A stretch of 64,000 bases of DNA from an uncultured Spirochaetota bacterium (GTDB taxonomy: Bacteria; Spirochaetota; Brevinematia; Brevinematales; JAOACQ01): positions 480,001 to 544,000 of the forward strand of contig CAWAOD010000011.1 in assembly GCA_963783575.1 (NCBI GenBank), given 5' to 3'. Shown in pieces: positions 30,123 to 60,132 of the stretch (positions within the stretch are counted from its first letter, which is position 1; each line of letters starts with the position of its first letter). The notes beneath the pieces were generated by a model. That model was not told the origin of the DNA and did no database searches. It saw only the letters and a program-made list of their open reading frames with translations. The translations under genes were made by a program, and so were the position numbers.

Positions 30123-31812
30123 CAGACTGTGTGAAAACACAGTAAATATGCTATAATTATTAGAACAAAATAATCGGAGTAAAAGATGAAGCATATTGAG
30201 GGAGAATCAAGGGATCAGATAGTTCTGTTCAATGAAACACTGGAAGATCTGTTAGGAGAAGAAGATCCGGTAAGGTTTATAGATATTTTTGTTGATAAGC
30301 TAAATATGAAAGGAGTTGGTTTTAAAGTAAAAGAAGCATCAACCGGCAGAAGTTCATATAAATCCGAAATACTTTTAAAAATCTATATTTACGGATATTT
30401 GAATAAAATCAGGACAAGCAGGAAATTAGAGAGAGAGTGCCGAAGAAACACAGAGTTGATGTGGCTGACTGGACGACTAGCGCCGGATTTCAAGACGATT
30501 GCCGACTTCAGGAAAGATAATAAGAAGGGAATACAGTCGATATTCAGAGAATTTTTGAAGATATGTCATAAAGCCGGGCTTTTATCATTTGACGTTGTTG
30601 GAATTGATGGAACCAAGATCAGTGCGCAAAACCACAATAACAATGTTTATCATAGGAAAAACATAGAAGAAATCATACATAGAATAGATCAAAAGATCGA
30701 AGAATATTTGAATGAGATGGATAAGAACGATAAGGAAGAAAAGAATGAATTTGAATTTCTTTCCGGAAAGATAGCGGAACGTTTAAAGAAAATGAAAACA
30801 AAAAAGGATAAAGTTGAGGCTATTAAAAAGATTTTTGAGGGAAATCCTGAAATGGAGAAATATTATTCAAATGACCCGGAAAGCCGGTTTATGAATGATA
30901 AAGGGAAATCCGACATTGCATATAATCTGCAGATGGCAGTAGATGATGCGAATAAACTGATTGTGGTGATTGATGTGACGAATGAAAACAATGATATCAA
31001 ACAGATGGCAGGAATGTGTGACCGAGTAGAAGAAATAAAGGACGAGCTTAAGGTAGAGACTGAAACGGTCAAAGTATCGGATGCCGGTTATTACAGCGAA
31101 CCGCAGATACTGGAATGTATAGATAAGGGACATAACGTATATATGCCGAATCCGGATGACGGACATAAGGCAAGGATTCGAGGCAAAGAAGATAATAAAG
31201 GAGTACCTGCTGAAGAATACCAGGTTGATAAATTCAAATATGATCCGGGACAAAATGTTTATTATTGTCCGGAGGGAAACCCATTAGTGAGAAATGGGAA
31301 AAAAGTAGAGAAGGTCAATGGAGGAAAAGAGATAGTCAGGTACAAGTGCGGCTTATGCAGCCAATGTGAAGTAAGAAATAAGTGTACTGAAAGCGTGGAA
31401 GGACGAAGTATCAAAGTACCAGTTAGAAAAGAAGAAATTGAGAACTTCAAGAGGAAAATTCGTTCTGAAGCCGGGAAAAAGATCATAGAGAAAAGGAAAG
31501 AGATATGTGAACATCCATTTGGATCGATAAAAAGGAATATGGGTTACAGTTATTTTTTAATGAAGGGAAAGGATGGCGTTCTGACGGAATCCAGTTTGGC
31601 AGGATTCATTCATAATTTAATAAAAGTATTGAATATATTGGGAATAAAGAGACTTATGACTCTGGTTTGATGCTAATAAACCATCGTTTATCGTATTCGG
31701 ATAGATTTTTTAAACTAAGATTTTTTTAGCTTGAAAAATATATCAAAAAATGGAGTTTTTGTATAATTAATCGATTTTACTATAAAATTTTACTGAGTTT
31801 TCACACAGTCTG
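30123..31812 (+). mobile_element. IS1182-family insertion sequence
   Basis: 24-bp terminal inverted repeats (30123-30146 and 31789-31812, 23/24 match), 3-bp target duplication CAA, single transposase. Confidence 0.92.
30186..31670 (+). CDS. IS1182-family DDE transposase
   Basis: SRKLE, PDFKTIADFRK, IDGTK, DAGY, CP-G zinc-finger-like segment, EHPFGSIK. Confidence 0.93.
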   Translation: MKHIEGESRDQIVLFNETLEDLLGEEDPVRFIDIFVDKLNMKGVGFKVKEASTGRSSYKSEILLKIYIYGYLNKIRTSRKLERECRRNTELMWLTGRLAPDFKTIADFRKDNKKGIQSIFREFLKICHKAGLLSFDVVGIDGTKISAQNHNNNVYHRKNIEEIIHRIDQKIEEYLNEMDKNDKEEKNEFEFLSGKIAERLKKMKTKKDKVEAIKKIFEGNPEMEKYYSNDPESRFMNDKGKSDIAYNLQMAVDDANKLIVVIDVTNENNDIKQMAGMCDRVEEIKDELKVETETVKVSDAGYYSEPQILECIDKGHNVYMPNPDDGHKARIRGKEDNKGVPAEEYQVDKFKYDPGQNVYYCPEGNPLVRNGKKVEKVNGGKEIVRYKCGLCSQCEVRNKCTESVEGRSIKVPVRKEEIENFKRKIRSEAGKKIIEKRKEICEHPFGSIKRNMGYSYFLMKGKDGVLTESSLAGFIHNLIKVLNILGIKRLMTLV

Positions 31813-34429: not shown

Positions 34430-34513
34430 GAATCAACAGGGTCAATCAACCTGCCTGGCCTGCCTACACCTGGATCTCCGGCAGGTAGACGGAAGACAGG
34501 TCACGCTTGTTAA
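34430..34513 (-). repeat. Modular palindromic repeat copy
   Basis: Reverse complement reads TTAACAAGCGTGACCTGTCTTCCGTCTACCTGCCGGAGATCCAGGTGTAGGCAGGCCAGGCAGG; its TAA is the stop of 34510-36726. Confidence 0.9.
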
Positions 34514-36726
34514 TTCTTCCCCGGCCGGAACACCCTTCCCGTCAGTTTCCAGGATTTATCCAGCCAGCTGTTTCCGTTAACTTCATATTCTGTCATCGGG
34601 TTCAGAAAATTAGGGCCGGGCGGGTTTTCATAATCAAAGGCCCGGTAATATCTTGTTCTTTTTTCATTTTCATTAACCTGAAAAATCGGGCGTCCCGGAA
34701 ATCGGTCTGTAATTCCAAGTTCGGTAGCAATTGTTTCGGGAATATCCCCTAAAGAAACCGGGGCGTCTGAAGTTTTCAAATCGCCTTTTGCGTTAAATCG
34801 TTTTGCAAGAATCAAAGGAATTCCCCGGGTTTTGTAAAACTCAAAAGTCGGAGTATTGTAGCCCGTATTTACGGATTTGTTATCCGGGTTATTATACATC
34901 TCCGGTACTCTCCCGCTACCATGATCTCCGGCTATAATTATTAAAGTATTATCGTAAACACCAAGACTTTTCAACTGTTCAAGGAACATCTTTGCGAGTT
35001 TCATCATAGCTTTGAACTGTCCTGAATAATGCACTCTTGAGTATGTAATATCTGCGAGCAATCCGAAATTCTCATCAAACCTCAAAGGGACATGCATTCC
35101 TTCAATATGATAAAACTTAAAAATCCCTTTGTTGCTGATAACCTGGGATTGGAGAACCATGTCGTTAATAAATCTGATACTGGGATTAAAAGTCACAAGG
35201 TCCTGAGAAAACGTAAAAGAATACGGCCATTTTCTTTTATTGAAAGGGCTTTTCGTATAAAGCATTTTAGACTCCCAGTATAACAGCCAGTTAGCGTCGT
35301 TGTAAATATACTTTTTCAGGAAATGAGGGACATATCTGTACAAGCCGGTATCATAAAGATAAGCCATTTCCTTTATAAGCTCGCTTAAACTGTCCCTTTT
35401 TTTCAGGTTCGACACAATCTTCTCATCGAAATAAACCGAATCGGGGGTTATTGGAAACTGGTCAACCTCGAAATTATTTTCTTTCAAAGTCTTAACGATC
35501 GAATGGCTTAGAAAAGCATTTTCAATATACTTTTGCAGCGGTATCGAATTATCGTAATAATCGCCTGTTAAAATGGAAGTTACCGAGGGAGAGGTAAAAG
35601 GGAATGTACTTAATGAATTTCTGAAATAGGTGAACCCGTCGAAAATTTTACTATATTCGGGATTGTTTTTAATAAATTCCTGAAAAATATCCGCCTGCGA
35701 TTCATCGATAATAAATATTATCACATTCGTATTTCCGGAGAAATTAAACTCTACATTTTCATCTACGGTAAACCTGCGGAAGCCCGATTCTTTGCTATCT
35801 TTATTCATTGGTTCCTTTATAACGGATAAAAGCGTAAATATCACCTGCAATAATATAAAAAAGACACTAATATTAGGTACATATTTTTTAATAAGTTCCG
35901 GCTTGATTATAAAGATTGAGATAATTAAAATAATCCATACACTGCTGTCGATTATTCCGAATAATAAATAATTTCCCCATTGAATCTTGCTGTTGTCAAT
36001 AATCCCGTAATTCCAGACCATCACGTTACCCTGAAGCCAGAAACCAAGCGATAATGCGAATATAACACCCATTGCCCTCAAATATAAACCGGACTTTACC
36101 GGAAATAACAAGAGAATTCTGGTAATTATAAGTGTCATGACAACAAATAATGGAATTAAATATAGTATGAGTTTATGAAGCACAAAATAAAATTCATTCG
36201 GATTAGCAAGGAATATCTGAAGAGGGCCGAAAAATCCGGCGGTTGATGAAAAGAAAACGGAAACCAGCAGCGCAGATTTGTATTTAAGTGAAAATTCCCT
36301 GGCTGTATATCCGGCTAAAAATAATTTTTCAGCAAGAATATAAACTATTAGAGGAACAATTAATAAAAGCGCCTGATTGAATATGAATGAACCGTTTGAA
36401 TAAATCTTCAGCGGGTAAAACCATAATAACCATATAGGAGCATGCAGCAAAGTAAGCTTTCCGGCCGATTCTTTATTGAGAGCACTCATAAGTAACCATA
36501 AATACAAAGTTCCAACCAATAATCCCAATATACCGCCGGCAAAACCCCTGAATAATACGCCGTCAAAGAAACTTATTTTCTGCCCGGAAAATCCCGAAAA
36601 CAATTTAATTAGCCTGTTATTCTGAGCCCAATTGATTTGTGAAACCGAAAAGATAGTTACTATCGCCCCGATTATCACAAGCAAAAAAAATATTTCCTTT
36701 ATTTTACCCGAATAACTTTTTACCAT
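34510..36726 (-). CDS. Membrane-anchored alkaline phosphatase/sulfatase-superfamily transferase (LtaS/EptA-like)
   Basis: Multi-TM N-terminus; IIFIIDE, FPFTSPS (Thr), HIEGMHVP and AGDHG metal-site motifs. Confidence 0.8.
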   Translation of the reverse strand: MVKSYSGKIKEIFFLLVIIGAIVTIFSVSQINWAQNNRLIKLFSGFSGQKISFFDGVLFRGFAGGILGLLVGTLYLWLLMSALNKESAGKLTLLHAPIWLLWFYPLKIYSNGSFIFNQALLLIVPLIVYILAEKLFLAGYTAREFSLKYKSALLVSVFFSSTAGFFGPLQIFLANPNEFYFVLHKLILYLIPLFVVMTLIITRILLLFPVKSGLYLRAMGVIFALSLGFWLQGNVMVWNYGIIDNSKIQWGNYLLFGIIDSSVWIILIISIFIIKPELIKKYVPNISVFFILLQVIFTLLSVIKEPMNKDSKESGFRRFTVDENVEFNFSGNTNVIIFIIDESQADIFQEFIKNNPEYSKIFDGFTYFRNSLSTFPFTSPSVTSILTGDYYDNSIPLQKYIENAFLSHSIVKTLKENNFEVDQFPITPDSVYFDEKIVSNLKKRDSLSELIKEMAYLYDTGLYRYVPHFLKKYIYNDANWLLYWESKMLYTKSPFNKRKWPYSFTFSQDLVTFNPSIRFINDMVLQSQVISNKGIFKFYHIEGMHVPLRFDENFGLLADITYSRVHYSGQFKAMMKLAKMFLEQLKSLGVYDNTLIIIAGDHGSGRVPEMYNNPDNKSVNTGYNTPTFEFYKTRGIPLILAKRFNAKGDLKTSDAPVSLGDIPETIATELGITDRFPGRPIFQVNENEKRTRYYRAFDYENPPGPNFLNPMTEYEVNGNSWLDKSWKLTGRVFRPGKN

Positions 36727-36778
36727 TCTTTTACCTCTGGCTCCCGAATTATTTTATTATTTTGGATGAGAATAATAG

Positions 36779-38653
36779 TCACTGGGAATTGCGCTTTTTT
36801 AAAACCGACAGATAATTTCCTAGTAAACCGACAAACCTCTCCATATCTTCGGCAAACATTTCGCCTATATTTGCTATCCTGAAAGTTTTTGCCTTAGAAA
36901 TTTTGCCCGGATAGATTGTAAAGCCTTTGTTATAAAAATAGTCATGCATTTTTTCAAAGTCATATTCGGGATAATCCGGTTCCAAAATCGCAGTAATCAT
37001 TTTCGATTGATGTTCTAGCGGGACAATATATTTCAAGTTAAGCCTTTTCAACCCATTAATCAAAACTTCCCAGCAGGCCGTGTATCTTTTATACCGGTTT
37101 TCTATGCCTTCAGTTTTCGCTTCAATAATGGCCTGCCTTAGCGCGTAAAAAGTCTGAACAGGCGGAGTAAAGCGCGTCTGGTGTGTTTTTTCAAAGTATT
37201 CATACTGCTTATAGAGGTTAAGATAATAATTCCGCATTTTGATCGATTTTGTTTTTTCAATTAAACTTCTATTTGCTATTATAAAACTTAAACCGGCCAT
37301 TCCCTGTATGTTTTTATTGGAACTTGCCGTCATAAAGCTGATATTCATGGCTTTCATATCGACCGGGATTGCCGCGAATGAACTGATACCGTCAACCAGA
37401 AGAATAATCCCGTATTTACCGCAGATTTTACCGATAGCTGTAACATCGTTCAGTAAACCGGTTGTTGTTTCATGATGAACAACAAATAAATGGGATATTT
37501 TTCTTTTTTCTGAAAAGGTTTTCTTTATAAAGGATTCAAGTTCAACAAGGTCAACGGCATTATCCGGCGGGCTTTTAAATTCCTGGTAATTTATTCCATA
37601 AACCTCAGCAATCCGGCACATCCTTTCTCCGTATGCGCCGTTATTAATAATCAGAACAATATCCTCGCCGACAACCGAAGACAGCATAGCTTCCATAGCC
37701 GCTGTTCCCGAGCCGCCGAAAAGCACGGTTGCATAATCCTTCGTGTCGGCTACAATGGATGTAAGCTCCATTGATACAAATTCCATAAGATCGCCGAATT
37801 CCTTTTCCCTCGGGCAGATATCAGGGGCAACCTGGGCATATTTTACGCTATCGGTTGTTGTAGCCGGGCCGGGATTTAGAAGCACATTTCTTTTTACGGA
37901 AAGAAGAGATTCTTTTTCACAAATAAGGGGATGTATTTTAGACCGCGCTCTTTCCAGATGTTCTTCATCATCTATTTCACACCACGAATAATCCTGGATT
38001 TTTTTAACATAGAATGGCTCCGTATTATTTTGAATATTTAGAATTGAAATCTTTGCCAGGGCTGATTCATAATCCATTTTTTTACATATTGCAGGTTCTT
38101 TTTCAACAAAATTACAAATCCCGGTAAAAGCCGGGTATGATATTTTAGAAATTCCCACCAATTCGCCGTAAATGCTCATTAAATTATCTTTTATTTTTGA
38201 AACCTGGATAAGATGGAATTCTTCATCGGTTTCAATGAAAACTTCGTCATTTGAATTTGTATAACCGCTTGCAAGTATAACGTCTTTATGAAAATCGTTC
38301 AGAAGAACTTTCAAGCCTGTTTTATCATAAAGAAGATCGGATTCAAGAAGCAGAAAATCATCTTTGATTAGTTCCTTCATATTATACAGAGTGTACAAAC
38401 TTCCCGAGACCGCATAATCCGGATTGAACCTACAGGTTATCTGATAGAAATTCCGGGCAAATTCCTCATATTTTTCATAAAGATAACCGGTACCTATAAA
38501 TATATTTTCAATACCGGATTCAATAAGCTTTCTAACAGATTGTTCAATAATAGTCTTTCCACCGATTTCCAGAAAACCCTTAGGCTTCTCTTTTGTTCTG
38601 TCTTTTAACCTGCTGCCAAGTCCGGCTGCCAGAATTACCGCAGTTTTAACCAT
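36779..38653 (-). CDS. aepZ: Fusion of NTP transferase (LicC/PntC-like cytidylyltransferase) and 2-aminoethylphosphonate transaminase
   Basis: N-terminal ILAAGLGSRL...KPK and EIDD; C-terminal class V PLP domain LLNPGP, HHETTTG, SSNKN, RFTPP, GFTIYPGK. Confidence 0.9.
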   Translation of the reverse strand: MVKTAVILAAGLGSRLKDRTKEKPKGFLEIGGKTIIEQSVRKLIESGIENIFIGTGYLYEKYEEFARNFYQITCRFNPDYAVSGSLYTLYNMKELIKDDFLLLESDLLYDKTGLKVLLNDFHKDVILASGYTNSNDEVFIETDEEFHLIQVSKIKDNLMSIYGELVGISKISYPAFTGICNFVEKEPAICKKMDYESALAKISILNIQNNTEPFYVKKIQDYSWCEIDDEEHLERARSKIHPLICEKESLLSVKRNVLLNPGPATTTDSVKYAQVAPDICPREKEFGDLMEFVSMELTSIVADTKDYATVLFGGSGTAAMEAMLSSVVGEDIVLIINNGAYGERMCRIAEVYGINYQEFKSPPDNAVDLVELESFIKKTFSEKRKISHLFVVHHETTTGLLNDVTAIGKICGKYGIILLVDGISSFAAIPVDMKAMNISFMTASSNKNIQGMAGLSFIIANRSLIEKTKSIKMRNYYLNLYKQYEYFEKTHQTRFTPPVQTFYALRQAIIEAKTEGIENRYKRYTACWEVLINGLKRLNLKYIVPLEHQSKMITAILEPDYPEYDFEKMHDYFYNKGFTIYPGKISKAKTFRIANIGEMFAEDMERFVGLLGNYLSVLKKRNSQ

Positions 38654-38674
38654 TGCATTACTCCGATGAGATAA

Positions 38675-39805
38675 TTATTGTTCGATAAACCGCATAAGAC
38701 GTTCTTTTACTTCAAACGGTTTAATCTTCGGTCTTGCCAAATTTTCTTTTGAACCGGTCCTGATCCGGATATATATGAATGTCAGAGAGTGTTTTTTATT
38801 CCATTCTATCATGGCGTTTTTAAGTTCATCCATATTATGGGCGTATACAACATTCGGGTAACCGCATGATGCAGCTATTCCCGGAAAATCGATATTTTGA
38901 GAAACCGTTTTCTGCCCTCCCGTAGATTCATGCGCATTATTGTCAAGAAGTATGTGAAGCATATTTTCATTCCTGTAGTATCCGTTCGTTGCCAGAGAAC
39001 CCATTCTCATTAGAACGGCTCCGTCCCCATCAATAACTATTATGTCTTTTTTACTTTGTACAACAGACAGTCCAAGCCCAATCGAACCTGCGCAGCCAAG
39101 CGAACCTACCATATAAAAGTTGTTCGGAGTGTCTTCGATTTCATAAAGCTCTCTTCCGGTAAAACCTGTTGATGCGATAAAAACAGTATTTTTATCCCTG
39201 AAAGCAACGACTTTCTGAAGGACCTCCATTCTTAACGGTAAAGTATCGGCATATTTCGAATCCGTAATTTTAACGGAAACTTTTTCCGGTGGAGGCTGTT
39301 TTTTTAAGGCCACTTTATCGAAAGTTCCTTTCCTGACAACAAAAAAGAAGCTTTCTTCCTTTTCAATCGACTCATTCGCCCTGTCAAGCTGTTCAAGGGC
39401 TTCTTCTTCTATGTTGGAAATATACTCCCATTTGATTTTCATAATATCAAGCATTGAGGTTGTAATCGAACCCATCAGTTCATGCTGCGGTTCATCCTGC
39501 AATCCCGGCTCTCCCCTGAGACTGACAAAACCCAGTACCGGAATTTTGAATATGTAATTCAGGGATGTTAAAGGCGAAATTGCATTTGTAAGACCGGAAT
39601 TCTGCATCAGAACAACTGATTTCATCCCGCCGATATATGCTCCGGCGCAGGCTGCGACAGCATCGCCTTCATTCGTGGCCATGATATAGCGGCAATCATT
39701 GATTGCGTAATTTATCAGATCCTTCAAAAAAGAGCAAGGAACACCGCTATAAAACTGAAAACCGTATTCTTTCATTTTCATTCCAAAATGACGGGTATTC
39801 AGCAT
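38675..39805 (-). CDS. aepY: Phosphonopyruvate decarboxylase
   Basis: SGVPCS, NEGDA, QNSGL, DEPQH, GDGA (TPP), HESTGGQ; start reassigned to ATG at 39805. Confidence 0.95.
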   Translation of the reverse strand: MLNTRHFGMKMKEYGFQFYSGVPCSFLKDLINYAINDCRYIMATNEGDAVAACAGAYIGGMKSVVLMQNSGLTNAISPLTSLNYIFKIPVLGFVSLRGEPGLQDEPQHELMGSITTSMLDIMKIKWEYISNIEEEALEQLDRANESIEKEESFFFVVRKGTFDKVALKKQPPPEKVSVKITDSKYADTLPLRMEVLQKVVAFRDKNTVFIASTGFTGRELYEIEDTPNNFYMVGSLGCAGSIGLGLSVVQSKKDIIVIDGDGAVLMRMGSLATNGYYRNENMLHILLDNNAHESTGGQKTVSQNIDFPGIAASCGYPNVVYAHNMDELKNAMIEWNKKHSLTFIYIRIRTGSKENLARPKIKPFEVKERLMRFIEQ

Positions 39806-39806
39806 T

Positions 39807-41405
39807 TTAGAAACCCTCCGCTTTTTGTAAATCAACGATGGTATTTATATCAAGCCATGAGCCCTTTATAAATTTAACCTTGATTCTGCAGGATTTAACC
39901 GCCTCATTAAGGAGATCGTTCATTCTTAACTGCTTAAAATCAGACCGGCCAGACAATAGCTCTAAACAGTTTTTTATTGTTTCAATACCATTTTTATTTA
40001 CCTTGAATATGCCTATGAACTCTCCATTAATCTCTTTTTTATCCAGTTTCGATGACATCTTTTCAAAGCATACAGGTTGAAGGAATATTTTTTTTGAATA
40101 AGGAATATCGGTTTTTACATAATCATGGAAATTCTGTTCGTCAAATTCAAAATCTGCATCAGCAATAAGAGTAATATCGCCGTCGTCGTTCAACAGGTCG
40201 TTAAGAATATAGCTTTTGAATATTATATCTCCATAGCTTACAATCGTATTTTCATTAAGTTCTTTTCTTGACAGATACAACGAATATAATTCTTTTGTAC
40301 AGGCATATTCGTCATTATCGACAGTCTTTATGTTATTCAAAAAAACTTTGTCTTTTGCAAAACCCCTGACCACTGTTATATCCTTTACGCCAACCTGGTT
40401 AAACAGATCGACCTGCGTCGAAAGAATGGGTTTCCCATTAATTTTTATAAGAGTTTTGGGGATTTCTTTTGTAATTTCCCCGAATTTGTCACCGCGTGCT
40501 GCCGCCAATATGATTGCGTTGACATTCTTTCCCGCAGCAGGGAGGTATTTTTTTTCGGCATCTTTCAGTTCATCCGCTCCCTGGAGCCTGAAAACCTCGC
40601 TTACGGATGCTATTTTGCTTTCAACATTTATCAGCGATTCGTCATTAAAGATTTGCATTGAGGTATTCTGCATTGATGTTACGGCCGATCTGAGATTATG
40701 ATTTGCCCAGATAATCAGGCTTATTCCCATATTACGGAAAACATCGGTTGGTACAGAATAATATTTTGTGGGAACAATAACCACCGGGTGCCTTCTGCCC
40801 CAAACATCCATAAAGGCTTCAATATCAGACGGATCTGATTTTTTACTATGCACCAGGATCGCGTTGGCGCCGGCTTCCCTATAAGCATCGGCTCTCCTGA
40901 CTGCTTCATCAAGGCCCCAACCTGTTATAAAGGCCTCTGTTCTCGCTACAACAACAAAATCACCATCTGTCTGCGTGTCCTTGGCGGCCTTGATCTTACC
41001 GCAAAATTCATCAATATCGGCAAGCGGCTGAAGCTCCCCGCCGATAAAAGAGTTATTCTTGGGGAAAAGCTTGTCCTCTATGCATACTCCGGCAATCTGA
41101 CGCTGTTCAAGTTTGGAGATAAGACGCCTGACATTGTTAAAATTACCATAACCGGTATCGCCATCCAATAAAATAGGTATTTCAGTGTTATCGCTCATAA
41201 ATTCGAGCACTTCCAGTACCTGTGTCCAGGATGCCTCATTATTATCCCTGACACCCAGAGATGCCGAGATTGTGAGCCCGCTTGCCCAAATACCCTTAAA
41301 ACCGGTTTCCTCGACAATTTTCGCAGAAAGACCGTTATGGGCTTCCATTATAAATTCAAGTTTATTCGAATGAATCAAATTTTTTAATTGCGTAGTTTTT
41401 CTCAT
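39807..41405 (-). CDS. pepM: Phosphoenolpyruvate mutase fused to a C-terminal NTP transferase
   Basis: [13 protein letters not shown] and diagnostic EDKxxxxxNS ([10 protein letters not shown]); C-terminal ILAAARG...PK and YGDI. Confidence 0.96.
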
Positions 41406-41467
41406 AATAAGAATTTTCCTTTACGAATATTATTTAACCGGAATTCGGCAGCGCATAATCCATCCTG

Positions 41468-42619
41468 TTATTTGCATAATTCAATAATTGCATCTCCGCC
41501 GGCTTTTGAGGAATTCAGCCAGTTATATAAATATTTTTCCCTATAATTTATGATTGTATTTTTATACATATCATGGCGTTCTATAAAATCCTTGCAGATA
41601 CTTTGTATATTATCGATATCCTTTATTTCAACCGATTTTCCAATCTGGTTTCTTATAGTAAATTCAAGGGGTTCAATCCCGAGTTCTTTATAATCCGGGT
41701 TATCAACACGCGGAGGAGTATTGATAAAAAGAACCGGTCTTTCCGTTCCGAATGCATATTCGAAAGAGATTGCCGACCAGTCTGTAATTAGAATATCAGC
41801 CTGATGAATACTCGTACCCTTAACCATATCGAGTTCCAGAGTCAAATTGGATATTCCTTTTATATTTTTCTGTATTTTTGCAATAGTATCCCATTTTCTT
41901 TTAATGAATTCGGGATGAGGCCTTATTAACACATCGAATTCGGAATCCCTGAAATTTTTAATCAGCCTATCTATGCAAGATTCAAGTATGTTGCCGGGAT
42001 TCCAGGAGGGGGCTATCAGGATTTTTTCCCTTGAATTCGCGGGATTTTGATTTTCTTTTATAAAATTCCGGTGGTCATTATAGATTTTTTCAACCCTGTA
42101 ATAACCGCAGGGTATCAAATTTTTAGGTTTTAAATGATAAATCTCCTCGGCTTTTCTGATTTCTTCAGTATCTCTTTCGCCGACGCAGAGTATTGTATCA
42201 TAATGATCAAAGGCATTTTTATGATATGTCAAATGAGTGCTGCCGATTCCGTGAAAAATATAGACATGGTTTACAGGGTTAACCGATCTTTTTAAATAAA
42301 AGTTATCTAAATCCGGCGTTGTCATTACAAGGACCTTTGAGTCGAGATTTAAAATAACCTGCGTTAGGAATTCTTTAAAATATACCGGTTTAATTCTCGG
42401 CTCATCCATCTTAAATACAGGATCATTAAGATCGGATGTAATATAACAGATATCGAGATCGGAATGTTCTATAATATATTTTATATACCCTTCATAGTAT
42501 TGATAATAAATGTCCCTTTCGGAATAAAAAACAAGCGTCCTTGATTTTTTATTTTCATCTGAAATAAATGAAATATAATTAAATAGTTCTTTAAAAAAAA
42601 GAAAAAAGCCCTTAAACAT
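41468..42619 (-). CDS. CDP-glycerol:glycerophosphate transferase (TagB/TagF-like) family protein
   Basis: FHG, LIAPSW, RPHP and ILITDWSAISFEY motifs. Confidence 0.82.
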   Translation of the reverse strand: MFKGFFLFFKELFNYISFISDENKKSRTLVFYSERDIYYQYYEGYIKYIIEHSDLDICYITSDLNDPVFKMDEPRIKPVYFKEFLTQVILNLDSKVLVMTTPDLDNFYLKRSVNPVNHVYIFHGIGSTHLTYHKNAFDHYDTILCVGERDTEEIRKAEEIYHLKPKNLIPCGYYRVEKIYNDHRNFIKENQNPANSREKILIAPSWNPGNILESCIDRLIKNFRDSEFDVLIRPHPEFIKRKWDTIAKIQKNIKGISNLTLELDMVKGTSIHQADILITDWSAISFEYAFGTERPVLFINTPPRVDNPDYKELGIEPLEFTIRNQIGKSVEIKDIDNIQSICKDFIERHDMYKNTIINYREKYLYNWLNSSKAGGDAIIELCK

Positions 42620-42643
42620 TATAACCTCTTAATAAGTTACAAA

Positions 42644-42883
42644 TTATTTTTCTGATGATTGACCAGAGTCCTGACTGATCCTGAAGATTTTCTTAAAAAG
42701 AGATTTGATATTTCCCCAGAAAAATTTTATGCCCATAATAATACCGACAAGGCCTCCGGCAAGAACCTGTAAATAAAAGTTTATTGAAGTCGGATCAAGA
42801 TATGCGTATGTAATTTGAGGTATTGAAATAAGCAGGACAACCATTAATACTGTAAAAAAAGGTAATGTTTTTAAGATAATCAT
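42644..42883 (-). CDS. Small membrane protein with an AYLDP motif
   Basis: 79 aa; signal-like N-terminus ending AYLDP, one TM helix, basic tail. Confidence 0.72.
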   Translation of the reverse strand: MIILKTLPFFTVLMVVLLISIPQITYAYLDPTSINFYLQVLAGGLVGIIMGIKFFWGNIKSLFKKIFRISQDSGQSSEK

Positions 42884-43102
42884 TTTAAACTCCTATCATA
42901 TGCAACTTAAATATATTGTGATATTGAACGGATTAATTATCAATAGTATTAATTCTAAATCAATTAATCCAATAAATCAAAATATATTATAAAAATAATA
43001 CATGTAATTTGAGATACAATAAATATTATTGAGGCTTCTGCAATCTTCTGTCAGAATATCCCCTTGAATCGATGTTCCAAGCCGAAGCAGCTAATTGAAA
43101 TA

Positions 43103-45334
43103 TTAATGATTATGAGGTTCAAAAGTACGGTTCTTTTTCCATGAAGATGTGTCCCAGCTATCTCCTTCCACACTGTATTCCGTAATAGTCCCAAGGAAAT
43201 GGTCGCCGGCCCTTTTCTCATAATCATAAGCCCGGAAATATCGGACGCGTTTCATACTATTCGTGGATTTTAGGACATCTATACCCGGAAAATCGGCTGA
43301 TATTCCCAGCTCCGATACAATGGTTTCAGGTGTATCGAGGACAGTAATCGGGAAATGTGAAGTTTTTAATTTTCCCCTTGCCGAAATGGGTTTTACCAGA
43401 TAAAGTGGTATGCCCCTCGATTTGCAATAATTAAAATTATAGACATTATACGTGAAGTTTGTCAGCCGTGAAAAATCCTCCACGGGTCTTATATACATTT
43501 CTTCACTACGGCCGCTTCCATGATCCCCCATAATAAAGATAAGCGAATTATCATAAACGCCCAATTGTTTAAGTCCCTCCAGAAACCATCGAATAATCCG
43601 CATATTTGCCTTTGCGGTACTTATATATGCTTTGTGGCTATATATCATATCCTTTATTACAAAGTCCTCATTCAGGGATAACCGTACATGGATACCGTTG
43701 ATGTGATAAAATTTAAAGGGGATTTTAGATTTGGATCCATTCTTAAGATATTTTACTTCTGCCTGTGACCAGAAATCGGTAATAAATCTTATATTATTAT
43801 CTTTTAAAATCTGATAACCGTTAAATGCATAAGTTGCTTTTCTCCCGGGTAAATATTTTTTAAATACAATGTTGTTCAACCCGGCAAAGAGAAACCACCT
43901 TGAATTATTATAGATGAAAGGTTTAATAAAATGTGGCATGTAATAAAATAAAGAAACGTCATATAAATATGAAAGTTCTTTTATTCCTTCAATAATCTGG
44001 CCCCGTTTGCGGATATTGGAAATAATTTTATCATCATAATAAACCGTATTTTTATCCTGGGGATAGACATCAACTTCATAGCCGTTTTCTTTTAGGCTTT
44101 TCAAGATGGAATTGCTCATATAGGTCTGCTCAATAAACCTCTCGATCGGTATTGTGTTGTCATAAAGCTTGCCTAACAATATGGATGGAACGGCAAGTTC
44201 TGTAAAAGTAAACCCTGCCAAAGCATTAGGAAAATAAGTAAACCCATCAAAAACATCTTCATACTCCGTCTTTTCTTTAATTATTTCCTGAAAGATATCG
44301 GATTGATACTCGTCAACAACTAGAATAATAACATTTGTCTCTGAAGAATAATCAAACTTTCCGGTTTCATCCACCGTATATCGCCGGAAGCTTGGTTCTT
44401 TAATATGAGCCTCTTTTGGAATCTGCTGAAAAATAAATAATGTATAAACAACCGCCTGTAAAAGAATAAAAAACAGGCTGGCATTTTTCAACAGTTTATC
44501 ATAGTGACTTAGCAATAAAACAGATATAATTATGAGAATTAACCATATGCTGCTGTCAATTATGCCGTAAGCAAATTTTTTACCCCACTCTATACTGCTT
44601 CCATCCAATACACCGTATTTCCATCCAAGAATATTCCCCTGGATCCATAAAGCTAAAGAAACGGCAAATATAATAGCTGTAAATACTTTATAACTCTTTG
44701 AATTGTAAGGGAAAATAAGAAATATCTGAAGCAATATTAAATAAACAATAGCATAAACAATCAGAGTATTTATAATAATCTGATATATTGAAAAATAAAA
44801 CTCCATCGGGTTGGTTAAATAAATCTGAAGCGGGGCATAAAAAAGGAGGGTGAGACTGAAAAAAAGCGGTACAGCCCAGGAGGATTTTAACTTTTTTTTA
44901 AAATTCAAACAAGTAATACGGATTAGAAAGAAATATTCTAATAGTATAAGGTAAGAAATAATTGCTCCGGAGAAAATCAGGCTGTTAAAAAAATCAACAT
45001 AAAGAAATTCAAACCGGAAGGGCATAAGTCCGGTAAATAAAAAAGGAATATGTGCGGCTGCTAATTTGCTGATAATCTTTTCTTCTGCCAATCCCAGCCT
45101 TTTATGAATGAATCTAACCCAGAAACTGATATAGAATAAACCAAACAATATACTGACTATTATAGTTACCGGCAGACGGAACCATAAGCGGTCAAAGACG
45201 GTAAGCCATTCATTATAAATATTATTCTGCATCCAAACTGCCTGAGGAGAAAATAAAATTATTATAAGCGACAGAATAATGAAACCGATCTTGAGCATTT
45301 CCTTTTTGTTACGGTTAAGTAAAAATTGAATCAA
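43103..45334 (-). CDS. Membrane-anchored alkaline phosphatase/sulfatase-superfamily transferase, paralog of 34510-36726
   Basis: Shared blocks PLQI, WxQGN, FDGFTYF, GDHGSGR, RGIPL; FTFTELA (Thr); start uncertain (TTG 45334 or ATG 45298). Confidence 0.8.
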   Translation of the reverse strand: MIQFLLNRNKKEMLKIGFIILSLIIILFSPQAVWMQNNIYNEWLTVFDRLWFRLPVTIIVSILFGLFYISFWVRFIHKRLGLAEEKIISKLAAAHIPFLFTGLMPFRFEFLYVDFFNSLIFSGAIISYLILLEYFFLIRITCLNFKKKLKSSWAVPLFFSLTLLFYAPLQIYLTNPMEFYFSIYQIIINTLIVYAIVYLILLQIFLIFPYNSKSYKVFTAIIFAVSLALWIQGNILGWKYGVLDGSSIEWGKKFAYGIIDSSIWLILIIISVLLLSHYDKLLKNASLFFILLQAVVYTLFIFQQIPKEAHIKEPSFRRYTVDETGKFDYSSETNVIILVVDEYQSDIFQEIIKEKTEYEDVFDGFTYFPNALAGFTFTELAVPSILLGKLYDNTIPIERFIEQTYMSNSILKSLKENGYEVDVYPQDKNTVYYDDKIISNIRKRGQIIEGIKELSYLYDVSLFYYMPHFIKPFIYNNSRWFLFAGLNNIVFKKYLPGRKATYAFNGYQILKDNNIRFITDFWSQAEVKYLKNGSKSKIPFKFYHINGIHVRLSLNEDFVIKDMIYSHKAYISTAKANMRIIRWFLEGLKQLGVYDNSLIFIMGDHGSGRSEEMYIRPVEDFSRLTNFTYNVYNFNYCKSRGIPLYLVKPISARGKLKTSHFPITVLDTPETIVSELGISADFPGIDVLKSTNSMKRVRYFRAYDYEKRAGDHFLGTITEYSVEGDSWDTSSWKKNRTFEPHNH

Positions 45335-45658: not shown

Positions 45659-46285
45659 ATGTCTGATGAAGAGTTTCTTGGCGTATTTAAACAGATAATT
45701 AATGAATTTAGGATTTTGAATGAACACTTTGATGCCAAAACAAAATCAAAGACAACCGATTATGATTTTGTCTTTTCACATTGGACAAGAGATATGAATA
45801 AGCGGTATAAAGGCTTGCCGATTAATATGCACTGGGGGACAAGTTCTCCTCAGATTGCAAAAAATGAGATTCTATTTGATGTACGGTTTAAAGACGAATA
45901 TTTTTGCGAGATTAAATATAAGTTTGACTCTAAATTTGTTGCAAACTTCGTCAATTCTTTCAAAGAGTTTGTGGAAATGTTTCTGAAAATAATGGAAAGT
46001 TTTAATAAATTTAATAAGAATTTTGATATTAAATCAAGTCCCAATATTACGGATTATGAAAAATCATTTTCAAACTGGAAAAAAGAGGTTTATGTTATTC
46101 ATCCGGATATTGCGCTTGATATACACTGGGAAAAGAAAACTGAAACAATCAGCCAGAATTCTGTTTTTATCAATATTATGATGAGAGATGATTATCTGTT
46201 TGAAAAAAAGCATAGTTTTATTGATGAAGGTGAGTTATTAAAACCTATTTCACTGGATGCTTTCGATGAAAGGTTTATTATTTAA
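45659..46285 (+). CDS. Hypothetical protein with two tandem homologous domains
   Basis: 208 aa; the pattern EF..F..I...F...N..FD.K....TDY...FS.W...HW occurs twice; GAGG RBS. Confidence 0.75.
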   Translation: MSDEEFLGVFKQIINEFRILNEHFDAKTKSKTTDYDFVFSHWTRDMNKRYKGLPINMHWGTSSPQIAKNEILFDVRFKDEYFCEIKYKFDSKFVANFVNSFKEFVEMFLKIMESFNKFNKNFDIKSSPNITDYEKSFSNWKKEVYVIHPDIALDIHWEKKTETISQNSVFINIMMRDDYLFEKKHSFIDEGELLKPISLDAFDERFII

Positions 46286-56545: not shown

Positions 56546-57799
56546 TCAGCAGTTAGTAGGGTATTTATTTTTGAGATACCACAATACGGTTTTCAAAATA
56601 CCGCTTTCAAAGTTTTCCTCAGCCTTCCAGCCGAGTTCCTTTTCAATTTTAGATGCGTCAATAGCATATCGTCTGTCATGGCCGGCTCTGTCCTCTACAA
56701 ATGAAATCAATTCTTTATACGATTTTTTATCAGTTCTTGGCTTCTGCACGTCAAGTATGCCGCATATTTTATCGGTGATGTAAAGGTTATCTCTCTCATT
56801 CCTGCCTCCGATATTGTAGGTTTCACCGCTTCTTCCTTTATGAAACGCTATGTCAATCCCCTTACAATGGTCTAAAACATAAAGCCAATCCCTTATATTC
56901 TTTCCATCTCCGTATATAGGGATTTTTTCGAGTGATAAGGCTTTTCGGATAATAGTCGGAATTAATTTTTCATTATGCTGTTTCGGTCCATAGTTGTTGG
57001 AACAATTAGTTGTAATTGTATTTAAGCCGTAAGTATGATAAAAAGCTCTGACAATAAAATCGCTTGAAGCCTTGGATGCGCTGTAAGGAGAATTTGGGGA
57101 ATAAGCGGTTTTTTCTGTGAATAAACCGGTTTCGCCGAGGCTTCCATAAACCTCATCGGTCGAAATATGATGAAACCGGTATTCCGAATTATCGTTTTTA
57201 ACAAGCGTGACCAGTCTGCCCCTACCTGCCGGAGATCCCGGCGTAGGCAGGCCAGGCAGGCTGCTTGACCCGGGTGTAGATTCCTTACGCGACAAAGTTG
57301 CGTATAACTCTGCCGCGTTTCTACTAGAAGATGCTCCCAGTTGCGATGCACTGAGTTTATCGAAGTGTTCTGACTTTAATACCTCAAGGCTCTGCCTTGT
57401 GGATTCTTTATTATCCGGCGGTTTGACTCTCCATGCATTCCTTGCCGCATTACATAAGTTAAAGGTTCCGTTTATATTTGTTTTGATGAAAACATCGGGA
57501 TCGGCAATGGAATTATCAACATGAGATTCTGCGGCAAAATGAATTACTCCCCGAATATCGTATTCTTTAAAAATAGAATTGATTAATTTCCTGTCACAAA
57601 TATCACCTTTCAGAAAGTAGTATCTGGGATTACCTTCAACATCTTTCAAATTTCCCGGATCGCCTGCATATGTCAGTTTGTCAATATTTAAAATAAAATA
57701 GCTCTTGTATTTATTTATGAAATAAGGAATAAAATTTGATGCGATGAAACCGGCTCCTCCGGTTATTAATATTGTTTTTAAGGATTTATCCCTCAACAT
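56546..57799 (-). CDS. rfbB: dTDP-glucose 4,6-dehydratase with an in-frame insertion of about 70 aa
   Basis: TGGAGFI, DKLTYAG, HFAAESHVD, ISTDEVYG, YSASK, DRAGHDRRY. Confidence 0.93.
   Translation of the reverse strand: MLRDKSLKTILITGGAGFIASNFIPYFINKYKSYFILNIDKLTYAGDPGNLKDVEGNPRYYFLKGDICDRKLINSIFKEYDIRGVIHFAAESHVDNSIADPDVFIKTNINGTFNLCNAARNAWRVKPPDNKESTRQSLEVLKSEHFDKLSASQLGASSSRNAAELYATLSRKESTPGSSSLPGLPTPGSPAGRGRLVTLVKNDNSEYRFHHISTDEVYGSLGETGLFTEKTAYSPNSPYSASKASSDFIVRAFYHTYGLNTITTNCSNNYGPKQHNEKLIPTIIRKALSLEKIPIYGDGKNIRDWLYVLDHCKGIDIAFHKGRSGETYNIGGRNERDNLYITDKICGILDVQKPRTDKKSYKELISFVEDRAGHDRRYAIDASKIEKELGWKAEENFESGILKTVLWYLKNKYPTNC
57198..57407 (+). repeat. Longest copy of the modular palindromic repeat, located inside rfbB
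   Basis: Homologous to intergenic copies at 11571, 34430 and 46282; reading frame preserved. Confidence 0.9.
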
Positions 57800-57825
57800 A
57801 TAATTACTCCGGATATTTCGAATTT

Positions 57826-58689
57826 CTATTTTAATTTCATTTTTTCAATACATTCTTTCAATGAATCCCGCCAATACGGTATTTCAATCCCAAGATCTAA
57901 TTTAATCTTTGCCTTGTTTAAAACGCTGTATCCGGGCCTTTTTGCCGGGGTGGGGTAATCTTTTGTTTCAATCGGGATGATGCCGCATTTTATTTCCGAA
58001 AACTCGCAAATTGCCTTGGCAAAATCATACCAGCTTGCCACGCCTTCGTTTGAATAATGATAAATTCCGCCATTTATATTTATCAATTGATCAATATTTC
58101 CCAGGATTGTCTTTGCCAAATCCCTTGCATATGTCGGTGTACCGATTTGATCAAAAATCATTGTGAGTTTATTTCTTTCTTTTGCCAGCCTAATAATATT
58201 CCTGACAAAATTACCGCCGTATTGAGAATAAAGCCAGGATGTTCTTATAATTACAGTTCCGGGACAAAATTTATTAGCTTCCCTTTCGCCTTCCAGTTTG
58301 GTTTTTCCATAAATTGACAGGGGGTTTGGAATATCGGTTTCAGCATAAGGCAAAGATTTTGTACCGTCAAATACAAAATCAGTCGATAAATGGATTAATT
58401 TGGCACCGGCTTTTTTTGAAATAACAGCAAGGTTTCTTACAGCCTCGGTATTTATCAATTCCGCGGTCTTTTCATCGCTTTCGGCTTTGTCTACCGCAGT
58501 ATAAGCGGCACAATTAATAATGAAATCAAAATTTTCAGCATTAAAAAACTCTTCCAGAGCTTCGGGGTTTGTGATGTCCAGTTCGCCGATATCGGTAAAA
58601 ATAAAATTCCATGATTGATAGTTTTTTGATAATTCTTTAATTTCAGAGCCAAGCTGGCCGTTTGATCCTGTTATTAAAATTTTCATCAT
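57826..58689 (-). CDS. rfbD: dTDP-4-dehydrorhamnose reductase
   Basis: GSNGQLG, AAYTAVD, STDFVFDG, YGKTK, DQIGTPT. Confidence 0.96.
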   Translation of the reverse strand: MMKILITGSNGQLGSEIKELSKNYQSWNFIFTDIGELDITNPEALEEFFNAENFDFIINCAAYTAVDKAESDEKTAELINTEAVRNLAVISKKAGAKLIHLSTDFVFDGTKSLPYAETDIPNPLSIYGKTKLEGEREANKFCPGTVIIRTSWLYSQYGGNFVRNIIRLAKERNKLTMIFDQIGTPTYARDLAKTILGNIDQLININGGIYHYSNEGVASWYDFAKAICEFSEIKCGIIPIETKDYPTPAKRPGYSVLNKAKIKLDLGIEIPYWRDSLKECIEKMKLK

Positions 58690-59249
58690 ATATTTCCATA
58701 AACTAAATTATTTTCAACTTTGTCCAATGATGGGTTAGCCTTGTCTTTATCAGAAATTATTATGTCGTTTAAAGGGATCTGCCAGTCAATTGCAAGAATT
58801 TTATCATTGTATGCGATCCCTCTTTCCATATCAGGTTTATAAAAGTTATCGCATTTATAAAGCAGTTCAACTGTTTCGCTTAATACGGCAAAACCATGGG
58901 CGAATCCTCTGGGAATAAATAATTGTCTTTTGTTTTCAGAGGATAGTTCGACGCTGACCCATTTCCCACAAGTCGGTGAGCCTGTCCTGATATCTACTGC
59001 AACATCGAGGGCTTTTCCAAAAAGAACCCTGACCAGTTTTGCCTGAGTATAAGGATAAAGCTGATAATGCAAACCTCTTAAAACACCGTAAGTTGACCTG
59101 GATTGATTATCCTGGACAAAATCTGATGTGATACCTTCTTTATTAAATAAATTCCTGTTATAACTTTCATAAAAATAGCCTCTGTTATCAATAAAAACTT
59201 TCGGCTCAATGATAATAACCTCTGGAATTCCAGTCTTAATGAATGGCAT
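58686..59249 (-). CDS. rfbC: dTDP-4-dehydrorhamnose 3,5-epimerase
   Basis: DNRGYF, QDNQS, RGLHYQ, GFAHGF. Confidence 0.97.
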   Translation of the reverse strand: MPFIKTGIPEVIIIEPKVFIDNRGYFYESYNRNLFNKEGITSDFVQDNQSRSTYGVLRGLHYQLYPYTQAKLVRVLFGKALDVAVDIRTGSPTCGKWVSVELSSENKRQLFIPRGFAHGFAVLSETVELLYKCDNFYKPDMERGIAYNDKILAIDWQIPLNDIIISDKDKANPSLDKVENNLVYGNI

Positions 59250-59262
59250 AATATTCTCTCCA

Positions 59263-60132
59263 TTATTGATTGGCTATGCTTAATAAATATTGTCCGTATT
59301 GATTTTTTAAATAAGGCCTGGCTAAATTCAAAAGCTGTTCTTTTGTTATATATTTTTTTGTATAGGCAATTTCCTCGATACAGGCTATCTTTAATCCCTG
59401 TCTGTGTTCAATTGTCTCGACAAAATTGCTTGCTTCCAGCAGGCTTTCATGTGTTCCTGTATCAAGCCATGCCATTCCGCGTCCTAATAGCCCGACTTTA
59501 AGCTTTCCCATTTTCAGGTATTCTTTATTAACATCGGTAATTTCCAATTCTCCTCTTTGCGACGGTTTTATGTATTTGGCTATATCGATAACTTTATTAT
59601 CATAAAAGTAAAGGCCGGGTACTGCATAATTTGATTTTGCCTTAACGGGTTTTTCTTCAATACTTATAACATTGCAGTCTTGATCAAATTCAACCACTCC
59701 ATATCTTTCAGGATCATTTACATAATATCCGAAAATCACAGCTCCGTCCTTTGTCTTGTTTGCTTTTATCAGCATCTCAGTGAAACCGTAGCCGTAAAAA
59801 ATATTATCACCTAAAATTAAGCAAACCTCATTTCTGCCAATAAAGTTTTCACCAATGATAAAAGCCTGAGCAATTCCATTCGGTTCAGGCTGAACAGCAT
59901 ATTCGATATTCAATCCTAGTTTACTTCCGTCACTTAATAAGTTTTTAAATAGCGGCAAATCTTTATCTGTGGATATGATCAAAATTTCTCTTATTCCGGC
60001 AAGCATTAAGGTTGATAGGGGATAATATATCAACGGTTTATCAAATACAGGTAAAATCTGCTTTGATAATGATACGGTTAACGGATATAGCCTTGTTCCG
60101 CTACCGCCCGCAAGTATTATCCCTTTCCTCAT
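59263..60132 (-). CDS. rfbA: Glucose-1-phosphate thymidylyltransferase
   Basis: [37 protein letters not shown]. Confidence 0.98.

Follow-up and report, generated by a model that had tools for sequence, protein, structure and literature searches.

A close described relative of the system considered here is the Pnt pathway of Treponema denticola, in which a Ppm-nucleotidyltransferase fusion, the phosphonopyruvate decarboxylase Ppd and a fusion of the cytidylyltransferase PntC to 2-aminoethylphosphonate (AEP) transaminase (AEPT) lead to CMP-AEP (PMC6697681; this and the other papers cited are represented by the parts of their text that were available). The transfer of AEP from CMP-AEP onto bacterial surfaces is stated as an open question by Rice et al. 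2019, whose available text leaves the steps after CMP-AEP open and points to LicD-like or glycosyltransferase neighbours (PMC6697681). Selenomonas 'Group 4' pepM clusters carry several sulfatase-annotated genes beside AEP genes, as the present locus does, but the available part of that account gives gene content only, with no mention there of a TagF-like protein, a microprotein or YidC (PMC8942020). Here, a cluster of seven genes was analyzed in a window of 64,000 nucleotides (the whole stretch of DNA under study; G000:C11:480001-544000) from an uncultured Spirochaetota bacterium, whose genome, G000, is 89.9% complete. Beside the AEP synthesis genes, the cluster encodes a membrane microprotein, termed YLDP, a TagF-like enzyme and two transferases, A and B.

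It is highly likely that the cluster uses these genes to decorate the envelope with AEP, through a LicD-free route of some kind. A more specific reading, to which we give slightly less than an even chance, is that the tyrosine of YLDP is a covalent carrier: it would be loaded inside the cell and brought outward by YidC, and the LtaS/EptA-fold transferases would unload it. The seven genes are as follows (elsewhere, L-numbers label fetched DNA stretches, or loci, and P-numbers label proteins).

43103-45334, minus strand: transferase B, 743 aa, a predicted membrane-anchored alkaline-phosphatase (AP)-superfamily (LtaS/EptA-type) phosphoform transferase (PF00884, 28 bits)
42644-42883, minus strand: YLDP membrane microprotein, 79 aa, candidate Tyr carrier, no Pfam family
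41468-42619, minus strand: TagB/TagF-superfamily GT-B phosphotransferase, 383 aa (PF04464), candidate loader using CMP-AEP
39807-41405, minus strand: phosphoenolpyruvate mutase (PepM) with a C-terminal MobA/LicC-like nucleotidyltransferase domain (TIGR02320, PF12804)
38675-39835, minus strand: Ppd (TIGR03297), likely start Met12
36779-38653, minus strand: PntC cytidylyltransferase fused to AEP transaminase (Tde1415-type), 624 aa (TIGR03301)
34510-36726, minus strand: transferase A, predicted LtaS/EptA-type phosphoform transferase, 738 aa (PF00884, 46 bits)

All seven open reading frames (ORFs) lie on the minus strand, in the co-oriented order that the original prediction had read from the DNA alone. 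The intergenic gaps from B to A are 219, 24, 62, 4, 21 and 52 nt, and an AGGAG sits just upstream of the YLDP start. PepM scored 389 bits against TIGR02320 (cut-off 320) and retained the EDKxxxxxNS motif, Ppd scored 422 bits against TIGR03297 (cut-off 313) and the transaminase domain 397 bits against TIGR03301 (cut-off 361). The PntC-AEPT fusion matched T. denticola Tde1415 (PDB 6PD1/6PD2) over its full length (E 2e-198) and kept R15, K25, E104, K153 and E196, the active-site residues discussed for Tde1415 by Rice et al. 2019 (PMC6697681). Because the family cut-offs were passed and the Tde1415 match keeps these residues, the predicted synthesis of AEP and CMP-AEP is, by homology to characterised enzymes, established chemistry, just as the original prediction had it. 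The nucleotidyltransferase domain fused to PepM (window 39807-40530) is 26% identical to the PntC domain and has an altered motif, AARGDK...PK in place of the expected GxG(T/S)Rx4-8PK; it is a putative second activating domain beside PntC. A family profile search gave no LicD or CDP-alcohol transferase match among the cluster genes, as had been claimed, and LicD had no match in the genome at its 89.9% completeness.

The YLDP microprotein consists of a signal-peptide-like segment, the sequence A-Y-A|Y28-L-D-P, one transmembrane (TM) helix and a basic amphipathic tail. A word-index search gave only four homologues, and the family was assembled from loci instead. The Tyr was invariant in 115/115 profile hits (103 distinct), a figure inflated by the seeding of the profile from Tyr-containing motifs, and was the sole invariant residue, since D, P, G, T and G all vary; it is retained even in the 21 hits whose D-P motif is broken. 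Following the TM helix, the tail is net positive in 102/103 distinct hits and, because the C-terminal tail is positive, Tyr would be placed outside after insertion, on the same side as the transferase domain. A signal-peptide-like segment was present in 44/64 stand-alone forms vs 10/39 fused forms. The possibility that Tyr is merely the +1 residue of a cleavage site was rejected, as the 29/39 fused forms without such a segment keep it. The stand-alone YLDP has the shape of the M13 procoat. The latter is reported to be a YidC substrate.

The TagF-like protein scored 44 bits against PF04464 (cut-off 22), has no TM segment and is encoded by the only PF04464 copy in the genome. A model of a homologous YIDP-TagF fusion (24% identical to the cluster protein; pLDDT 91.6), in which the YIDP segment forms one long helix (residues 13-42), was compared with solved structures. 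Staphylococcus epidermidis TagF (3L7I-M) came first and took the top ten ranks (E ~1e-11), at a structural identity to TagF-family structures of 13-16%. H235 of the invariant RPHP aligned with TagF H584. H123 is conserved among homologues and lies beyond the reach of the alignments to TagF; from its motif position, it may be the H444 equivalent. With a predicted GT-B fold and an H584 equivalent, the enzyme looks catalytically intact and may be the loader that transfers from CMP-AEP. TagF/TarL/Cps3D and CD0244 share the GT-B fold, the H584 equivalent and a CMP-releasing transfer from a cytidylyl donor (PMC10714395), whereas the TagF-like protein here has a microprotein and an outer transferase linked to it. 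No CDP-glycerol supply or teichoic-acid gene was found among the cluster's genes, to which that search was confined.

Transferases A and B are 42% identical, and both exceed the PF00884 cut-off of 25 bits. In transferase A, D341, T378, H545, D601 and H602 are invariant among 55 aligned homologues, and transferase B carries the DE, H and GDHG motifs. The AF2 model of transferase A (mean pLDDT 75) has 3-4 helices of low confidence at the N terminus, five TM helices that are modelled confidently, and an alpha/beta domain; the N-terminal helices are lineage-specific, the five TM helices are conserved and the catalytic domain is placed outside. LtaS, EptA (MCR-1) and OpgB likewise have a TM anchor, an outer AP-superfamily domain, a Thr nucleophile and metal ligands, while A and B have the extra N-terminal helices and relatives with a YidC-like domain. 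The family profile matched LtaS and MCR-1 distantly (E 6e-7 to 3e-5); its sequence distance to these is about the same as to sulfatases, which rank above them. The formylglycine C/S-x-P-x-R motif does not occur in the A/B family, where invariant Thr378 is found instead. Taken together, A and B would be LtaS/EptA-type phosphoform transferases with intact catalytic residues, whose donor is probably not phosphatidylglycerol or phosphatidylethanolamine. Both fold assignments of the original prediction, TagB/F-like and LtaS/EptA-like, were thus supported. The N-terminal 140 residues of A/B were considered as a degenerate YidC or a degenerate YLDP, and both ideas were rejected (hhalign probabilities 0.1% and 1.1%). 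A complex prediction of A (141-738) with YLDP (22-70) scored 0.02 against a mark of 0.32, with controls not folded; it gives no verdict and was not used either way.

The genome encodes four sulfatase-fold genes, including a third A/B paralogue at G000:C11:281094-283340 (L189:15094-17340), which stands on the opposite strand among GT2, GT4, GT10, GT87 and epimerase genes and may act on the glycan of its own glycosyltransferase locus. This paralogue is ~230 kb from the cluster, and the locus of a same-genus genome has one transferase only, on the opposite strand, with no B there; the description of the cluster as self-contained therefore did not fully hold.

The distribution of the TagF-like, YLDP and transferase trio was surveyed at 88 close TagF-like loci (8 from genomes and the best 80 of 567 from metagenomes, many of them short) and in 401 sampled genomes of the phylum, of which 78 have a TagF-like gene. 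From these 78, 40 spirochaete loci were fetched, picked for long contigs; kin are not independent in any of the counts. At the 88 close loci, YLDP was seen at 53, an A/B or HPF transferase at 39 (HPF is a subfamily related to A/B; hhalign 97.9%), a nucleotidyltransferase at 24 and pepM/ppd at 16. Where 3 kb or more was available on each side (23 loci), the corresponding counts were 14, 14, 9 and 9. Among the 40 spirochaete loci, YLDP was found at 40, a transferase at 38, a YidC-like domain at 38, a nucleotidyltransferase at 23 and pepM/ppd at 7. YLDP was present in all 78 genomes with a TagF-like gene. The donor supply genes differ between loci and include LicC-LicA with LicB (L132), a kinase fusion with EutH (L147) and PepM/Ppd/Fe-ADH (L012, L050 and L069); at further loci, class I/II aminotransferase, MFS or phosphonate ABC genes stand beside a nucleotidyltransferase. 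Other loci carry choline, ethanolamine or hydroxyethylphosphonate (HEP) supply genes. A quick tree built from 74 TagF-like rows required 11 changes of the pepM label, of which well-supported branches forced at least 9.

A phosphonate-specific trio was rejected on these grounds, namely the presence of pepM/ppd at only 16/88 and 7/40 loci and the switching of the label on the TagF tree. The trio is a real, widespread, donor-agnostic module, and its link to pepM is facultative. The synteny survey suggested in the original prediction bears the trio out insofar as it is a conserved unit, linked by fusions and often beside pepM; an association with pepM, whose absence would have counted against that prediction, was found, but exclusiveness to it was not.

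Two further sets of neighbours were observed at the close loci. A TylF-like O-methyltransferase gene adjoins the TagF-like gene at 6/88 (L013, L020, L021, L035, L037 and L050), some with pepM/ppd/Fe-ADH, possibly for methylated phosphonate head groups. At L063, L065, L081 and L083, the TagF-like gene stands with a PepM-NTP fusion and radical SAM/SPASM genes, with no YLDP or transferase within the fetched stretch, which perhaps indicates a different phosphonate product.

Natural fusions tie the parts of the module together. A YidC domain directly precedes the TagF-like domain in 33/34 longer TagF-like homologues, and 29 of these 33 additionally carry an A/B-type region, in two different orders; in three fusions, a YIDP segment lies between the YidC and TagF-like domains. 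At the spirochaete loci, YIDP forms the N terminus of the TagF-like protein in 37/40 and a YidC-like domain is fused to the transferase in 35/40. L186 carries the same complete AEP system in fused form. The cluster in the window is the fully split, YidC-free form of this module. This genome has one YidC only, of 566 aa and on another contig, and a hidden second paralogue was rejected by genome search. L069 is the sole close locus with a YidC-like gene, which lies on the opposite strand and looks housekeeping. The importance of a basic residue in the YidC groove is discussed in the available part of PMC8920935; this residue is Lys in the genome's own YidC and in 18/18 aligned fusion proteins. 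One YidC-TagF fusion, P0139, ends in BspA-type leucine-rich repeats, with no transferase there.

The same microprotein was found in a second setting. In Sinorhizobium meliloti 1021 and E. canadensis, the gene order is nodL, a 71-aa ORF, noeA, noeB, and the 71-aa ORF belongs to the YLDP family (hidden Markov model E ~1e-18), the Sinorhizobium homologue scoring E 6e-19. The two genes are placed as follows.

L160:6968-7216 (S. meliloti pSymA): 71-codon YLDP gene that follows nodL and overlaps the start of noeA; either listed as hypothetical or left without annotation
L161:6941-7189 (E. canadensis pT173b): 71-codon YLDP gene in the same position and with the same annotation status

To our knowledge, the chemistry of noeA-noeB has been unknown since 1995. 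In plasmid searches, a YLDP homologue directly preceded noeA in 60 rhizobial records, and no TagF-like match was found. NoeB matched the HPF profile (E 5e-16), and the Sinorhizobium locus resembles the present one in its microprotein family and its AP-fold membrane enzyme with D-E, T, H and GDHG. It differs in that the putative loader is a kinase-methyltransferase rather than TagF-like and that there is no nucleotide-activated donor; neither a TagF-like nor a YidC-like gene was found within 7 kb of noeA-noeB in S. meliloti 1021 and E. canadensis. NoeA is described as a kinase plus methyltransferase and NoeB as having an AP fold, a hypothetical neighbour of ~65 aa occurs in 65% of 816 NoeA neighbourhoods, and Nod-factor or envelope decoration is proposed (PMC9758233). 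The Legionella genes Lani_1193/1194/1195 form a similar NoeA-type cassette (PMC9758233), where Lani_1193 would be of the YLDP family judging by its size and position only.

NoeA-like hits in the 401-genome sample had YLDP directly upstream in 10/10 cases and an AP-fold gene adjacent in 8/10, while TagF-like, nucleotidyltransferase and YidC-like genes were found in 0/10 of these stretches (6-16 kb). The YLDP peptides of the TagF-like and NoeA settings look alike. A single NoeA-like query gave no match in this genome. NoeA-like genes, whole or as fragments, were observed beside YLDP and a TagF-like gene in 7/88 close loci (L011, L018, L023, L026, L036, L043 and L060), which may hold both loader types together or be remnants of a swap. 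YLDP was also found in 11 further genomes without a TagF-like match. Seven of these are explained by the NoeA-like hits, and in two YLDP lies near contig ends beside transferase genes. In the other two, YIDP is fused to a phosphodiesterase-family protein beside cysD/cysN: at L172:6054-8108 and L173:3706-5763, YIDPGTG stands at the N terminus of a 684-aa PF01663 protein with cysD/cysN-like genes adjoining, and L173 additionally has a sulfatase-fold gene. A third, sulfate-related use of the Tyr peptide is possible at these loci.

YLDP is common to two unrelated types of cytoplasmic hydroxyl-using enzyme and to one class of outer enzyme that needs activated ester donors, and for this reason it is most simply read as a common substrate of the TagF-like, NoeA-like and outer enzymes. 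A Tyr-carrier relay in the present cluster would begin with PepM, Ppd and AEPT making AEP and PntC making CMP-AEP, by homology to characterised enzymes. The cytoplasmic TagF-like enzyme would then, following its family chemistry, release CMP from CMP-AEP and attach the AEP group to an acceptor hydroxyl; that acceptor would be Tyr28 of YLDP, modified while its segment is reachable from the cytoplasm. At the weakest step, YidC would bring the Tyr segment outward, once or repeatedly, with the housekeeping copy serving here and a dedicated or fused copy elsewhere. Finally, the fold chemistry suggests that A, B and the third paralogue could take AEP from the aryl ester onto the catalytic Thr and then hand it on, each to a different glycan or glycolipid of the envelope. 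Phenolic esters are good donors. Candidate acceptors are lipid A or lipopolysaccharide, and the glycan of the third paralogue's locus; the genome has LpxC. The relay would be donor-agnostic, with NoeA-type kinase-methyltransferases as an alternative loader of the same peptide.

In the DltB/DltX/DltD and PatA/PatB systems, a membrane microprotein or fused motif likewise presents an invariant outward Tyr between loader and unloader, and in DltX/PatA this Tyr is an acyl carrier, a precedent for a microprotein shuttle (PMC12148441). Those systems differ in handling acyl groups, in their MBOAT and SGNH folds and C-terminal FxYxxF, and in that the MBOAT enzyme reaches the Tyr through the membrane (PMC12148441). 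YLDP has an N-terminal YLDP motif and GT-B and AP-fold partners; it is not homologous to DltX, and the comparison is one of analogy only.

Several points weigh against the Tyr carrier, beside the seeding bias already given with the conservation of Tyr. The final topology would put Tyr opposite the loader, so that either loading before insertion or repeated flipping would be needed. Loading before insertion would be costly and is hard to picture for the 410-aa YIDP-TagF fusions, and we know of no precedent for repeated flipping. The acceptors known for characterised TagF-family enzymes are sugar or polyol hydroxyls, and the donors known for characterised enzymes of the LtaS/EptA type are phospholipids. 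As for export, no YidC-like gene was found at this locus or at 87/88 close loci, many of which are short, the NoeA loci are likewise without one, and the groove residue is Thr, Asn or Ser in 61/63 YidC-like domains of the spirochaete loci. YLDP itself was seen at only 53/88 of the metagenome-dominated loci and at 14/23 of those with long flanks.

The main alternative interpretation, which extends the original prediction and is possible but on the unlikely side, is that the TagF-like enzyme puts AEP on an inner-leaflet lipid, which the YidC-type groove scrambles and A and B then use, with YLDP as an anchor or scaffold whose Tyr serves for docking. A and B do share the layout of lipid-donor enzymes, with five TM helices and a catalytic domain, lipid scrambling has been reported for insertases, the spirochaete YidC-like domains are without the groove Arg/Lys, and the modelled YIDP helix (residues 13-42) could simply anchor the enzyme in the YIDP-TagF fusions. 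However, a mere anchor needs no invariant outward Tyr with a conserved D-P-G-T-G-S cap common to two unrelated enzymes, and both unrelated loaders would have to make a lipid donor. In the original prediction, the TagB/F-like enzyme may load a carrier that is a lipid or a glycan, and no function was assigned to the microprotein; the comparisons made here point at least as strongly to the microprotein Tyr as the putative carrier.

It could also be that the enzymes have separate jobs, although this appears improbable. The TagF-like enzyme would put AEP on a cytoplasmic glycan or lipid-linked repeat unit, and A and B would act independently, using either ordinary phospholipid or an AEP-diacylglycerol that one of the CDP-alcohol transferases encoded in the genome would make. 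Clostridioides difficile CD0244 gives a precedent, with genetic evidence and a proposed activity (PMC10714395). Six PF01066 (CDP-alcohol transferase) genes lie elsewhere in the genome, the third transferase stands at a distance from the AEP genes, within a glycan locus, and 9/23 long loci are without a transferase match, all of which is consistent with such a division. Set against it are the natural fusions in which one chain holds both a TagF-like and a transferase domain, in either of two orders, and the presence of a transferase within the locus at 38/40 spirochaete loci, and the microprotein would be left without a role. That A and B are instead hydrolases or editors, akin to phosphonate monoester hydrolases, which trim or recycle the decoration, is very improbable: sulfatases and phosphonate monoester hydrolases match the family profile at least as well as LtaS and MCR-1 do, but the nucleophile is an invariant Thr with no formylglycine motif, and the conservation of five TM helices, the occurrence of several paralogues in a genome and the close linkage to genes for donor synthesis also speak against it.

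The Tyr carrier can be extended to a broader and rather doubtful proposal, that YLDP microproteins are a general Tyr carrier for anionic head groups, with interchangeable loaders, YidC export and LtaS/EptA-fold unloading. The TagF-like enzymes would perhaps use CMP-AEP, CMP-HEP, CDP-choline or CDP-ethanolamine, NoeA would perhaps make methyl-phosphate and a sulfate version might exist. If this were true, it would amount to a lipid-free, LicD-free surface decoration with a protein insertase as small-group exporter, and would account for the rhizobial noeA-noeB. The same microprotein links the phosphonate, phosphocholine and phosphoethanolamine versions to these host-range genes and, if Tyr is the carrier, the logic of DltX extends from acyl to phospho(no) groups. 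The synthesis half of the cluster is already in print, and the NoeA neighbourhood has been published with no mechanism attached to it. The transfer module is undescribed, since no paper was found on the TagF-like/YLDP/transferase route or on its link to noeA-noeB in a literature coverage that mostly excludes subscription journals. The cluster in the window has the complete donor pathway and each candidate transfer part as a separate gene, which makes the transfer of AEP directly testable in vitro; the loader is soluble and the candidate carrier is short enough for synthesis.

Scans for promoters (58 sites vs 46.7 +/- 7.6 in shuffles) and terminators (14 vs 9.5 +/- 3.1) were not informative. 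A TagF-like gene was found in 1/11 other genomes of the family, a distribution that fits a horizontal gain. An intact-looking transposase with DUF772 and DDE domains, presumably of the IS1182 type, lies at window 30186-31670, ~3 kb downstream of the cluster. Sugar-nucleotide genes of the dTDP-rhamnose type (NTP transferase, RmlD and dehydratase) occupy window 56546-60132, 11 kb upstream of the cluster. Two ORFs in the window gave no Pfam match, one of 694 aa at 61460-63544 and one of 208 aa at 45659-46285; the latter is oriented divergently to transferase B and seems to be internally duplicated.

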